From a virus, in IMG/VR virus record IMGVR_UViG_3300035180_001847, positions 32,001 to 96,000 of that record: a stretch of 64,000 nucleotides of DNA; one strand, 5' to 3'. Made by a program: the position numbers and the translations under genes. Positions 9,738-57,426 of this stretch are shown piece by piece. Positions within the stretch are counted from its first letter, which is position 1, and every line of letters starts with the position of its first letter. The notes under the pieces are model-generated. The model was not told the origin of the DNA. It searched no databases and was given only the letters and a program-made list of their open reading frames with translations.

Positions 9738-9870
9738 ACCCAATAACGTATGCTCCCGACTAGCGGGAGTCTGGTTGCCATAAATAGGTTTTATCTATTC
9801 TTTGAGTTTAATTTCCTTTCGGGCATTTTCTCAGCCCCGTTCCACAAGCGGCTGACGCAAACCGCTAAGT
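9738..9870 (+). mobile_element. attC-like recombination site
   Basis: ACCCAATAACGTATGCTCCCGAC...AAGCGGCTGACGCAAACCGCTAAGT; termini match the RYYYAAC/GTTRRRY pattern with mismatches. Confidence 0.7.
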
Positions 9871-37875: not shown

Positions 37876-38880
37876 ATGGCGAAAATTAAATCGATTGAAA
37901 TAACAAATGAACAATGGCAATCCGTTAATCCACGCAACCGAAAAATAACGGATGAATTTCTTCGAGAAAGTATGCAACTTTCAGACCAAACCTTGAAGCA
38001 ATATTCTTCCGCTCTTCAAATTTATTTTTATTGGGTGAAAACGGAATGTGAAGATAAGGATTTCGATAAACTTAAAAGTAAAGATTTTTTGATGTTTCAA
38101 AATTATCTAATAAGAAGGGGGCTGTCATCTTCTGCTATTAGACTTAAACGAGCGGCTGTTTCATCTTTGAATCAATATGTTGAGACATATTTTGAAGATT
38201 TGAATTTTAAAAATTATATAACTAAAAAAATTCCTGCGCCAGCAATGGTGTTTGTAAATGAAAAGAAGCCCCCCACTCTTGAAGAATATGAAATGATTTG
38301 TGCCAAGCTGGAAGAAATGCAGGAATGGCAAAAATTGGCTTATCTACGCTTTACATTTACAACTGGATGCCGAAGGAGCGAATCGGTTCAGTTATTAAAA
38401 AGTATTGTTGATTCTGAAAAGAAAATTGTTGAAGTAAAAACAAAAGATGAGAACGGTAATCCCATAATTAAACAAGCGTCTTTTTATGTTACCAATCCCA
38501 TACGATGTAAGGGCAGGGGAAAAGCTGGAAAGATTCGCACATTTCAGATGGATGAGGCGGCCATGCTTGCAATTAAAAAATGGTTGTCTGTTCGCGGAAA
38601 TGATGATTGTGAATATGTTTTTGTTTCTAATATAAAAGGAAAAATAAAACAATTAAATCCAGCGACTTTAAATAAATGGTCGAAAGGATTGTTTACAGAG
38701 ATTTTAGGAAGAAGATTTCACCCCCACATTTTAAGAGAAGCAAGGGCAACAAGTCTTGTCGTTGAAGGTGGGAAAGATATAAAAGTTGTTCAAAAATTAT
38801 TAGGCCACAATAGTCCTCAAACTTCCGAAATTTATGTAATTAGAAATGATGAAGATATGAGCGATGAGGCATTTACATAA
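37876..38880 (+). CDS. tyrosine recombinase (XerC-like, YomM-like position)
   Basis: TGCRRSE, HPHILR, LLGH and Y catalytic residues. Confidence 0.9.
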   Translation: MAKIKSIEITNEQWQSVNPRNRKITDEFLRESMQLSDQTLKQYSSALQIYFYWVKTECEDKDFDKLKSKDFLMFQNYLIRRGLSSSAIRLKRAAVSSLNQYVETYFEDLNFKNYITKKIPAPAMVFVNEKKPPTLEEYEMICAKLEEMQEWQKLAYLRFTFTTGCRRSESVQLLKSIVDSEKKIVEVKTKDENGNPIIKQASFYVTNPIRCKGRGKAGKIRTFQMDEAAMLAIKKWLSVRGNDDCEYVFVSNIKGKIKQLNPATLNKWSKGLFTEILGRRFHPHILREARATSLVVEGGKDIKVVQKLLGHNSPQTSEIYVIRNDEDMSDEAFT

Positions 38881-48465: not shown

Positions 48466-50061
48466 ATGACAACTACTACTCCAAATTTGGGGTTGACGTT
48501 ATATGATTCTTCAACTGATACATCTGTGCTATTTTCAACCTTTCGGGCTGTTTGGGGCGGGACAGCACCGACATCAAATTTCTATAAAATAGATACCGCT
48601 TATGGGGTTCAAGCCTCTCAGATTGCAAATTTAATGAATACGCGAGGTGCAATTCCAGTTTCAGCATTATTTAGTTCTGCAAATTATTATGTTGCAAATG
48701 GGGTTTCAGACATTACAGCATACACGGCAGGAATGACAATTATCTTGAATGTTGATACGACAAGTAACGGAACTGTAACACTGAACATAAATTCGCTTGG
48801 AATTATTTCTGTTATGAAGGTTGATTCAACTGGAACTCCAATAAATTTGACGGGTTCAGATTTAGTCAAAGGCAGACAATACTTAATGGTTTACGATGGA
48901 GCGAGATGGCTTTGGGTTTCCGCTAATTCTGCTGACCAAATTCAAATTGTTGGAACATCTGGAAATGTTGTAACCGTTGGAGCTACTAATAATTTGGATG
49001 GTTCTTTAACACAATCATCACTTATATCCAATACATTACATGCCGCAATAGTTAAAACAACTTTGAATGATAATGATGAATTTGGTATATCAGATAGTGC
49101 CGCATCCAATATTCTTAAAAAAGCAACGTGGGCAAATATTAGGGCAACGCTCAAAACATATTTAGACACCCTATATATGTCTTTGGTTGCCCCTGGTGCA
49201 TCCGGCAACGTAATGACATCAAATGGCTCGGCGTGGGTATCATCTGTACCAAGTAAATTGCCATTCAATGGCACATACGGAGATGGCTCAGATGGTGACG
49301 CAACCATTTCCAGTACCGTTACGCTCACACGCGACATGTTTTATAACAATCTAACTATTACTGGCTCTGGCGTGTTAATTCCCGCCGGATATATTATCTA
49401 TGTGAGCGGCAACCTTACCATTCAGTCAGGTGGCATCATTGCCGCGAATGGCTCAAATGGCGCGATTGGTTCAGGTGGCAACGGTGGTGCAGGCGGTGCT
49501 GGGGCGGTTGGAACAACATTGCATTATCCAATAGCAACCAGTGGTAGCGCAGGTGGTAACAGCGGCGGCGTTGGAACGGTAAACGGCACAAGCGGCACAT
49601 CTGGGGTATCACAAAACACTTCGACCCTTGCGCCCATATCGATGAGAGCGGGTGGTGGTGGCGGTGGTGGTGGCGGACATGGTTCATCTCCCACCAATGG
49701 CAGTAATTCAGCAGGCTCCTTATTCGGTGCAAGAGGTGGAAACGGCGGAGCTACAACCAGCACAACAAACATTTCCTCTGCTGGTGGTGGTGGCGGCGGC
49801 GGTGGCGGAGTTATTGATGTGCGCGCATACATTATCGGTAACGCTGGTTCAATTCAGGCACTTGGCGGTAACGGTGGAGACGCGCAAGGCGGAGCCAACG
49901 GTGGTGGTGGCGGTGGTGGCGGTGGTGGTTGTATTTCTGTCATCTATCACTCAACCACTGGAAACGGAATTGGAACTCTCAACGTCAACGGCGGCGCGGC
50001 TGGTGCTAGTGGTTCAGCTTCGGTGGGTGCTAATGGATATACAATGACAACGCAAATTTAA
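48466..50061 (+). CDS. tail fibre/receptor-binding protein with glycine-rich C-terminus
   Basis: MTTTTPNLGL start, YGDGSDG motif, poly-Gly tracts. Confidence 0.8.
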   Translation: MTTTTPNLGLTLYDSSTDTSVLFSTFRAVWGGTAPTSNFYKIDTAYGVQASQIANLMNTRGAIPVSALFSSANYYVANGVSDITAYTAGMTIILNVDTTSNGTVTLNINSLGIISVMKVDSTGTPINLTGSDLVKGRQYLMVYDGARWLWVSANSADQIQIVGTSGNVVTVGATNNLDGSLTQSSLISNTLHAAIVKTTLNDNDEFGISDSAASNILKKATWANIRATLKTYLDTLYMSLVAPGASGNVMTSNGSAWVSSVPSKLPFNGTYGDGSDGDATISSTVTLTRDMFYNNLTITGSGVLIPAGYIIYVSGNLTIQSGGIIAANGSNGAIGSGGNGGAGGAGAVGTTLHYPIATSGSAGGNSGGVGTVNGTSGTSGVSQNTSTLAPISMRAGGGGGGGGGHGSSPTNGSNSAGSLFGARGGNGGATTSTTNISSAGGGGGGGGGVIDVRAYIIGNAGSIQALGGNGGDAQGGANGGGGGGGGGGCISVIYHSTTGNGIGTLNVNGGAAGASGSASVGANGYTMTTQI

Positions 50062-55349: not shown

Positions 55350-55587
55350 GATGTAAAATTACATTTTTATCAATAATTTTTACTATCATGTCACAATATT
55401 CGTCTTCTAATTGAGTGCATGACAAAACACATGACAAAAAATTAAAAAGACATGCACACGTCAAATAATAACGTGCGCATGCACTCAAATAAGTAAGAAA
55501 TGTCATCACAAGAACAATGAAATCGAGGATGATTAACCAGAACACAAAATACAATCAACAACTACACCAACGTCGAAACCTAAACTC

Positions 55588-55626
55588 GCCCAACCGATAG
55601 CCAGTTGGCCGCACGCTTTGTTAGTC
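55588..55626 (-). mobile_element. minimal attC-like site
   Basis: Minus strand GACTAACAAAGCGTGCGGCCAACTGGCTATCGGTTGGGC. Confidence 0.7.
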
Positions 55627-55815
55627 ACCGCTCATGCTGTCAAACACATTCAATAGTGTTTCATCAAACGTGCCAACACCTCTCATTTCTTCGAGGCGTA
55701 CGGCGCATTGAAAGAAATCATTTTCTTTGAGACAATCTTTGGCAGATGTCAACAATGTTTCGATAACCTTGATGCGTCGCTGCAACTCTTGTTTGCAAAC
55801 ATCTTCTGTTTTCAT
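55621..55815 (-). CDS. hypothetical protein, gene cassette
   Basis: 64 aa, AAGGAG RBS; stop codon TAA lies within the GACTAAC inverse core. Confidence 0.7.
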   Translation of the reverse strand: MKTEDVCKQELQRRIKVIETLLTSAKDCLKENDFFQCAVRLEEMRGVGTFDETLLNVFDSMSGD

Positions 55816-55839
55816 AATTCTCCTTTTAGCAAGATGGGG

Positions 55840-55964
55840 GACTAACGGCTTGCGTCAGTTGCGGGGCGATTTGCAAAGCCCGCAAGTATCAAAATTTACA
55901 CTGCAAAAGGAATTACATTTTTTGCAGCACCAGTAATCCCCATCAACTGCGCGCCTTGTTAAGT
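55840..55964 (-). mobile_element. attC-like site overlapped by coding sequence
   Basis: Minus strand ACTTAACAAGGCGCGCAGTTGATGGGG...GCCCCGCAACTGACGCAAGCCGTTAGTC. Confidence 0.8.
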
Positions 55965-56103
55965 GCGCCAAAGTTTCGCCAAGTTCCTTATAAAGCAACC
56001 CTGCTTCTTCTCGCGTAAGTATATAATCTTTCATACCCTCAAGGGGACGAAGGCAAACAAGATCGGAAACACCTTTATACGTTGAAATCATTTTGTTTTG
56101 CAT
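55855..56103 (-). CDS. hypothetical cassette protein with C-terminal zinc finger
   Basis: 82 aa, AGGAG RBS; WCCKKC...CGLCKSPR. Confidence 0.7.
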   Translation of the reverse strand: MQNKMISTYKGVSDLVCLRPLEGMKDYILTREEAGLLYKELGETLAHLTRRAVDGDYWCCKKCNSFCSVNFDTCGLCKSPRN

Positions 56104-56109
56104 AGTAGC

Positions 56110-56204
56110 TCCTAACTATGTTTTGAGCGGTGAAATCACCGCCTAAATACCCAAATTAATCTTAATTATCTTCATTAGCCAATCGTATGAACGGCTTGCT
56201 CTGG
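56110..56204 (-). mobile_element. degenerate attC-like site
   Basis: Ends ATAGTTAGGA on the minus strand; the left end CCAGAGCAAGCCGTTCA is eroded. Confidence 0.35.
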
Positions 56205-56387
56205 ATAGAACTTGACTTCACCACCCCAAGCATACCAAAGATCAGTTACGTGTTCAACGATTTCAGACGCTTTATTCTCAAGTTCATCAGGAATAACGAG
56301 AGTTGGATTATCGCCGTCCCACCTGATTATTGCGCCTTCATACTCTTTTGCAAGAGCCTTTTCAAGAAGTGCCTTCCAGTTTTTCAT
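56175..56387 (-). CDS. hypothetical protein, gene cassette
   Basis: 70 aa, AAGGAG RBS, directly after an attC GTTGGGC core. Confidence 0.7.
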   Translation of the reverse strand: MKNWKALLEKALAKEYEGAIIRWDGDNPTLVIPDELENKASEIVEHVTDLWYAWGGEVKFYPEQAVHTIG

Positions 56388-56407
56388 GAGTCTCCTTTTC
56401 CTAGATT

Positions 56408-56539
56408 GCCCAACAGACTTGCGTTAATGGTTTTGTCGCTCATAGTTCGCGCAAATTAAATGAATGCATTGTTCGCAGGGTTCGCCATAGACATATTGTT
56501 TGGTATCGGTGGCGAAATCCCCTGCGTGCTTTGTTAAGT
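56408..56539 (-). mobile_element. attC-like site overlapped by coding sequence
   Basis: Minus strand ACTTAACAAAGCACGCAGG...TAACGCAAGTCTGTTGGGC. Confidence 0.7.
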
Positions 56540-56672
56540 GTACTTTATGTTGATTATGAGCGTCTCTGACACCGAACGCCCAGCATCGAAAGCCACAAAT
56601 TGAGCAGGTGTAATATTTTGTCTTTTTACCGCGATGGGTAATTTCAAATTTAGCACGATGATGTTTTTTCAT
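56424..56672 (-). CDS. hypothetical Cys/His-rich cassette protein
   Basis: 82 aa; CSICG...H..H and CEQC motifs. Confidence 0.6.
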   Translation of the reverse strand: MKKHHRAKFEITHRGKKTKYYTCSICGFRCWAFGVRDAHNQHKVHLTKHAGDFATDTKQYVYGEPCEQCIHLICANYERQNH

Positions 56673-56795
56673 ATTTATTCACTTCTGTTCCTTTTGGTTT
56701 CAAACTAAATCACCCGCAATTTTCATTACACCCAATCTTATTTTTTGGCAAACGTTTTCTTTTTCAAGTGGCAAAAATTGAAATTGAAAGCGACA

Positions 56796-56996
56796 TCAAA
56801 CATCTTTTTCCGGAACTGATTCTACATCGCCATACTTCTCTAGAAGTGGCTCAACCTCATCATAAAGTGAATAACCCTTTTTGAGTAATTCAACAGCATT
56901 ATGTAATTGGCCTTTTGCAATCATTGCTCCAAGTTCCCCATTGTGTTGAATATTGTAGTCTGCGTTTTCCAACGCTTCCAAAATTAATGCCGCCAT
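56796..56996 (-). CDS. hypothetical protein
   Basis: 66 aa, AAGGAG RBS. Confidence 0.6.
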   Translation of the reverse strand: MAALILEALENADYNIQHNGELGAMIAKGQLHNAVELLKKGYSLYDEVEPLLEKYGDVESVPEKDV

Positions 56997-57200: not shown

Positions 57201-57426
57201 TTTTTCACCTTTCTTTTTTATTATATAGCAAACGATCCATTTTGTCAATAGGCAATTTATGAAATTGAATTATTTGTTCTATTTTTCAAATCCTTTTAAG
57301 GTATCTTACAATATCTCACCATTTATTTATCATACTTGTTGTCATCACGTTATCCATTCAAGTATTTCAAATAATTGTTTATAAGCATCTTCATTTATGT
57401 GTGCATAATAAACATGATTTTTAAAT

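Follow-up and report, generated by a model that had tools for sequence, protein, structure and literature searches.

An integrase-less cluster of attC-bounded gene cassettes at the 3′ end of a phage operon

The window, meaning the whole 64,000-nucleotide stretch of phage DNA analysed here, very probably carries on its minus strand, at 55588-56700, an integrase-less cluster of attC sites (CALIN), whose four promoterless cassettes form the 3′-terminal part of a phage operon, derive from a wider pool and most likely entered or were swapped under the action of a host integron integrase (IntI). The sites belong to a family of bacterial attC sites, and the small genes between them are laid out as cassettes of foreign composition. 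Cassettes of this phage are shared with a bacterial integron, and two strains of the phage differ by whole cassettes.

The phage operon and its four cassettes

The IMG/VR record is 105,455 bp long and has direct terminal repeats; the window represents its bases 32001-96000 (positions are those of the window unless marked as genome positions). PHROG matches identify the tailed-phage genes for a portal, a tape-measure protein, a minor tail protein, a large DNA polymerase and a repair exonuclease, and the genome is that of an uncultured, siphovirus-like phage of about 105 kb. The backbone has a GC content of about 30%, and the cassette block, with 43% overall and 40–45% across 55500-56700, is compositionally foreign to it. 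Further GC-rich islands are present at other places in the genome. A 1-kb GC peak of 50% at 49001-50000 also lies within an ORF of 531 aa (48466..50061) that has no PHROG match, in a tail region of otherwise 30% GC.

The cassettes are framed by the following features of the phage:
57220..57248, minus strand: perfect sigma-70 consensus promoter (TTGACA-17-TATAAT, 12/12 consensus match), predicted function
56796..56996, minus strand: phage backbone ORF of 66 aa, directly upstream of the array and conserved in the relative L130
55450..55482, minus strand: T-tailed hairpin resembling an intrinsic terminator, about 100 nt past the array, predicted function
55349-55321, minus strand: second perfect sigma-70 consensus promoter (12/12), downstream of the terminator-like hairpin

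The promoter at 57248-57220 is located about 550 nt upstream of cassette 1 and heads a phage transcription unit whose 3′ end consists of the cassettes. The two 12/12 promoters, both on the minus strand, are less than 2 kb apart and flank the cassette operon. Upstream of cassette 1, neither a recognisable attI nor an attC-like site was found, and no Pc promoter of an integron was identified there. A sequence-only reading of this DNA had described each of the four genes as bounded by attC-like sites; this applies to cassettes 2–4 but not to cassette 1. The cassettes lack promoters and run in the direction of the operon, so read-through from the promoter at 57248 would likely account for their transcription.

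The four small ORFs are all encoded on the minus strand:
56424..56672, minus strand: cassette 1 ORF, 82 aa, with a zinc-finger-like N-terminus (CxxC...HxxxH); it runs through its attC, and the TAA of TTAACGC (L′ box) is its stop codon
56175..56387, minus strand: cassette 2 ORF, 70 aa, from a small metagenomic family with 15 homologues; predicted small alpha/beta protein
55855..56103, minus strand: cassette 3 ORF, 82 aa, whose last 33 aa are a CxxC...CxxC zinc ribbon encoded by the attC; the stop codon is the TGA of the L′ box
55621..55815, minus strand: cassette 4 ORF, 64 aa, 89% (nucleotides) and 92% (amino acids) identical to a cassette of the complete bacterial integron L145

Within about 25 nt (10–25 nt) after each complete attC, AAAGGAG is found, followed by the ATG of the next ORF. 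The units have the layout of gene cassettes, in which a promoterless ORF with its own ribosome-binding site is placed between an R′ core and the next attC, and cassettes of the phage (cassette 4 among them) recur in differing arrays and contexts. Two proteins with unrelated N-termini (among P0005-P0007) also carry the 33-aa zinc-ribbon tail of ORF 3, and P0005 is the ORF 3 body joined to another tail. A structure model of the ORF 2 family (pLDDT 80) gave no PDB match at E <= 0.001, so no function was assigned to it. None of the four proteins has a Pfam match, a significant PHROG match or a tblastn match in 50,697 GenBank phage records, and nucleotide searches of GenBank phages gave no match. 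The idea that the cargo consists of typical small phage accessory genes did not survive these searches, and cassette 4 has its counterpart in a bacterial chromosomal integron.

The attC sites and the search for an integrase

The motif C(T)TAACAARGCRYGCRG is present in five copies in the 105-kb genome, all on the minus strand and three of them in the cassette region, and matching 3′ ends of the form ACGCAAGyC(n)GTTRG follow about 125 nt downstream. The shared starts and ends from which the array was originally recognised are therefore present in the sequence as described. A 16-mer from the phage was scanned over 185,579 genomes (596 Gb) and gave 120 loci, about half of which are chance matches, as expected, so that the scan is useful only once it is filtered for the 3′ end. 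The remaining loci form a family of sites of about 125 nt with the conserved end CTAACGCAAACCGTTRRRY, and they occur mostly in metagenome-assembled genomes of Anaerolineae/Chloroflexota. Three of the five genomes checked encode integron integrases with more than 460 bits on TIGR02249 (cut-off 265), which in two of these three lie 3–6 kb from such a site.

A covariance model, R1, was built from 37 aligned bacterial attC sites. Their alignment displays compensatory changes in 8 of 15 stem pairs and the architecture of attC, namely, an R box, an unpaired spacer, an L box with extrahelical bases and a variable loop. Since the training sites were chosen with the phage-derived 16-mer, the 5′ part of each R1 score is to some extent built in; this choice has no bearing on the 3′ halves, on the stem pairing or on the shared cassettes. 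The model finds three sites in the locus, on the minus strand and with exactly the ends given in the sequence-only reading, and a filter-free search of 6 kb around the array gave no other significant match. The fourth site of that reading, 56110-56204, failed. The elements of the locus are as follows:
56408..56539, minus strand: attC 1, which keeps the 5′ end (CTTAACAAAGCACGCAG) and the 3′ end (TTAACGCAAGTCTGTTGGGC) of the family; interior rearranged; weak R1 match (14 bits, E 0.014 in the 6-kb search)
56111..56160, minus strand: atypical (“eroded”) element, a hairpin GCGGTGA/TCACCGC followed by GTTAGG; GTT at 56116-56114; swap point relative to L130
55840..55964, minus strand: attC 3, canonical (R1 38.7 bits, E 3e-9); R″ ACTTAAC, unpaired spacer, L″/L′ stem with extrahelical bases, R′ GTTAGTC
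55588..55626, minus strand: terminal attC of 39 nt (R1 21.7 bits, E 1e-4); R″-spacer-L″ intact (GACTAAC), R′ GTTGGGC; truncated

Cores of the form RYYYAAC and GTTRRRY are found as R″ and R′ at 55840-55964, 56408-56539 and 55588-55626, and the R′ cores of the locus are an intact GTT. The 7/7 core match noticed earlier is real: GTTAGTC at 55846-55840 and GACTAAC at 55626-55620 are exact reverse complements. The TAA of the ORF 55621..55815 does fall within CTAAC, which places the stop codon in the inverse core. The fold of the site 55840-55964 is that of a canonical attC hairpin (z = -2.9), and in the R1 alignment G/C and A are extrahelical on its 5′ arm, matching the bacterial consensus. Such a hairpin is formed by none of the other three. 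The site 56408-56539 (ACTTAAC ... GTTGGGC) has no end-to-end fold. In 55588-55626 the L″ and L′ boxes abut without a loop, so the site cannot fold, and it is probably inactive. The conserved core of 56110-56204 is a hairpin element of about 47 nt ending in GTTAGG, which carries only an R′ (GTTAGGA). Its interpretation as a short or reversed attC was rejected, as there is no complementary R″ in either orientation and no R1 match. Of the four sites, one alone is a well-formed attC; the locus is partly decayed, with the last site truncated, one rearranged and one atypical. In L130 (11220-11237) and in the metagenome runs X2 and X4, attC 1 and ORF 1 contain, at the position of window 56465, a tandem duplication of 9 nt (GAACAATGC on the minus strand), which adds EQC.

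The locus has three R1 matches within 950 nt, where a CALIN requires at least two attC sites (Qi, Rajabal, Ghaly, Tetu, Gillings 2023, Front Microbiol, PMC9892861), and the closest gene for a tyrosine recombinase, which is no IntI, lies at a distance of 17 kb. When the covariance-model scan was extended to the whole phage genome, it gave 13 sites at E < 0.01, including sites of the present array; 12 are on the minus strand and all are in GC-rich islands. Eleven more matches lie outside the cassette locus, at genome 1697-30220, mostly before the start of the window, and at one place within it:
9738..9870, plus strand: attC of the same family in another array of the window (R1 34 bits, E 1e-6), co-oriented with the neighbouring genes

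The genome thus has no fewer than 13 attC sites, distributed among several arrays. Mutated R′ cores (GCT, ATT, TTT) in 5 of the 15 sites listed elsewhere suggest fixed, decaying cassettes. Among 39 IMG/VR loci (L148-L186; about 45–55% GC), all preselected for containing the 16-mer, R1 gave 112 matches, so the cassette-array phenomenon is not unique to the present phage. Two of these contigs, L171 and L166, have single cassettes or attC sites in common with it. About a dozen attC matches were also found on the contig L118 (3.9 kb), which had been assigned by binning to a CPR bacterium.

The sequence-only reading had proposed to look for intI elsewhere in the phage. The best TIGR02249 score over the whole 105-kb genome is 37–42 bits against the cut-off of 265, and no IntI is encoded; an intI gene adjoining the array, scoring above the cut-off and containing the IntI-specific insertion, as in a complete integron, is absent from the phage. 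Two tyrosine recombinases are present, both Xer-like and both without this insertion:
37876-38880, plus strand: Xer-like tyrosine recombinase, 334 aa, directly upstream of the tape-measure gene in the structural module
genome 7474-8310: second Xer-like tyrosine recombinase

The position of the first of these in the structural module is odd for an integrase. It is very unlikely that one of the two recombinases acts on the attC sites and makes the phage self-contained. Their best NCBIfam match is a XerA/“integron integrase” model, though below the cut-off, and the mere presence of two such enzymes fits the idea; however, neither gene adjoins an array, the missing insertion is the part of IntI that reads the extrahelical bases, and the same attC type stands beside bona fide IntI genes in bacteria. 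As the phage has no IntI, exchange of its cassettes would probably depend on a host integrase.

Cassettes shared with integrons and replaced between strains

The complete metagenomic integron L145 encodes an IntI of 326 aa that scores 411 bits on TIGR02249 (cut-off 265) and contains the IntI-specific insertion. Its intI gene is followed by ten R1 matches of 37–80 bits, and its cassettes have 43–48% GC between flanks of 57–60% GC. In L145:3520-9467, intI and its cassettes share one strand instead of being divergent. The similarity between phage and L145 is confined to the cassette (window 55865..55611, 89% of nucleotides): its start lies within the conserved 3′ portion of the attC before the cassette, and it ends about 16 nt into the next attC. 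A second cassette is common to both (genome 24011..23683, 91%), and it is 2 kb from cassette 4 in L145 versus 64 kb in the phage. A homologue of the cassette 4 protein with 92% identity is found on three metagenome contigs. The exchange between phages and integrons suggested by the sequence-only reading is supported insofar as cassettes are common to L145 and to other arrays of the phage, but the phage itself encodes no IntI.

The site 55840-55964 recurs, about 95% identical, behind an unrelated ORF in the IMG/VR contig L166 (632-850). In homologous cassettes, the similarity ends about 16–20 nt into the attC, past the invariant CTAACAAWGCKTGC, as seen for window 55611-55626 against L145:7019-7034; the same end, past CTAACAAWGCKTGC, is seen for L130:12105-12126 against genome 17831-17853. 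These alignments show that ORF bodies and attC sites re-assort at the invariant R″-L″ 16-mer. Such re-assortment is not explained by G|TT crossover alone, and homologous recombination may be needed. As far as the compared sequences indicate, the cassettes come from an environmental pool common to bacterial chromosomal integrons with the attC type of about 125 nt, mostly of Chloroflexota. The GC content of the phage (30%) argues against a Chloroflexota-type host, although the shared attC type points to Chloroflexota-like integrons.

Turnover of the array can be seen in the relative L130, a contig from another sample that is 96% identical to the phage over 11.6 kb (98% in the helicase). It is collinear with the window as far as 56114 and diverges immediately after ATAGTT, at the GTT of the atypical element. 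Past this GTT, the cassettes of L130 are other small ones and bring attC sites of their own; one of these replacements (MSEKQ...) shows 88% identity to genome 18060-17831, within another array of the present phage. At genome 18 kb, a deletion has joined the MSEKQ leader to a 93% copy of the atypical element together with codons 1–10 of cassette 3. The two strains thus differ by whole cassettes from the GTT on, and the MSEKQ cassette occupies a different locus in each. In this one relative, the boundary falls right after GTT and the cassette content is replaced, as the comparison of related phages proposed for the GTT cores would predict; such a divergence would equally arise from homologous recombination between conserved attC 3′ ends. 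In searches for more relatives, the helicase gave only L130 among viral contigs and none among metagenome contigs, cassette 4 gave no match in viral contigs, and the ORF 2 family and the 47-nt element gave no relative besides L130.

DNA of the phage is contained in four metagenome runs (X1-X4) of sediment and microbial mats from four studies, one of which could be the sample of origin. In these runs, 56111-56114 is the joint for at least five different sequences, of which only the L130-type variant was placed at the same phage locus. The depth over the 47-nt element is raised 3- to 8-fold, which indicates that the element sits in many contexts. A joint 55858->55947 in X2 and X4 may represent a replaced interior instead of a deletion.

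Repeats such as attC can mislead metagenome assemblers, and attC hairpins look like weak terminators. It could be asked whether the array is an assembly chimera of phage and bacterium formed at repeats, or whether its hairpins are terminators or promoter stem-loops. This is hardly credible and has been largely refuted. Independent contigs from at least three studies span both junctions between backbone and array, which argues against a chimera, and backbone and cassettes are joined in the same way in the diverged relative, which comes from another sample. A purely regulatory nature of the repeats is ruled out by R1, a model of bacterial sites, and by the cassettes common to an IntI-bearing integron.

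A different account, in which a bacterial piece with several cassettes was taken up once by illegitimate or homologous recombination and is now inert, is unlikely but has more in its favour. Later changes would then reflect phage homologous recombination at attC ends, with no integrase involved. The truncated terminal attC, the rearranged attC 1, the atypical swap site and the mutated cores in one third of the sites listed elsewhere fit such a relic, as do the absence of IntI from the phage, the re-assortment of ORFs and attC sites at the 16-mer and the deletion that fused two cassettes at genome 18060. However, the arrays occupy several separate loci and are all co-oriented with the local genes, cassette-wise replacement is seen between strains just 4% apart, at least five different sequences are joined at one GTT in metagenomes, and the R′ cores of the present locus are intact, all of which speaks against a single inert capture.

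Known systems and biological meaning

According to the preferred reading, that of a pool-derived CALIN, cassettes most likely enter and swap during phage replication in a host that expresses an integron integrase. This host IntI, whose action on phage DNA is assumed, would cut the folded bottom strand of attC at G|TT. The cassettes might be of benefit to the phage. A more far-reaching version can be entertained tentatively, in which host integrase recombines infecting phage DNA in an active cassette traffic, with cassette-wise turnover at several loci, a two-way flow between phages and integrons and the co-option of some attC sites as coding zinc-ribbon tails. The broader proposal of the sequence-only reading, that these phages use attC recombination to gain and shuffle their genes, stands in part: an integron-type array is present in a real phage genome, and its cassettes vary at GTT between relatives.

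Integron cassettes are usually regarded as belonging to bacteria and as being moved by plasmids and transposons. Modular exchange is also known from T4-type phages, in which PeSL shuffling makes use of promoter/terminator repeats by homologous recombination. The likeness lies in small phage accessory genes that are exchanged as modules between repeated hairpin elements; the sites of the present phage differ in being integron attC sites common to bacterial integrons. The sedentary chromosomal integrons (L145 and those of the Anaerolineales/Chloroflexota genomes G001, G002 and G005) resemble the phage arrays in their homogeneous attC type, the AAAGGAG leader and shared cassettes. Phage and integrons have in common an attC family with R″ CTAAC, spacer AAAGC, L″ GYGCAG, L′ CTAACGC and R′ GTTRRRY and a length of about 90–130 nt. 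In contrast to these integrons, the phage lacks IntI and has no recognisable attI or Pc, its replicon has 30% GC, its arrays are short and scattered, and several of its sites are truncated or mutated in the core.

Integrase-less attC clusters in phages have already been published and are rare in that report, which screened 10,705 phage isolate genomes and found integron parts in 21 phages, including 17 CALINs (PMC9892861); the present phage is a further case. In a plasmid assay, IntI1 recombined five of the six phage attC sites tested there (PMC9892861). As that report describes them, those CALINs share with the present one attC-bounded, co-oriented small cassettes, the absence of IntI, a cargo mostly without assigned function and a presumed bacterial integrase. 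Compared with them, the present phage has at least 13 R1 matches in several arrays. It also displays natural cassette swaps relative to a 96% identical strain, of which the sections of that report considered here describe none (PMC9892861), and it has two cassettes about 90% identical to those of a complete integron.

Evidence for the few phage examples published so far comes from site prediction and a plasmid assay; the present phage adds natural evidence of three kinds, namely, cassettes about 90% identical between phage and integron, strains that differ from the GTT on and one cassette in different arrays. Phage-integron exchange becomes testable in defined sediment and microbial-mat samples. 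These findings suggest a route by which phages may sample small genes from the cassette pool. If the traffic is indeed active, the accessory genes of such phages would turn over cassette by cassette and would be exchanged in both directions with bacterial integrons.
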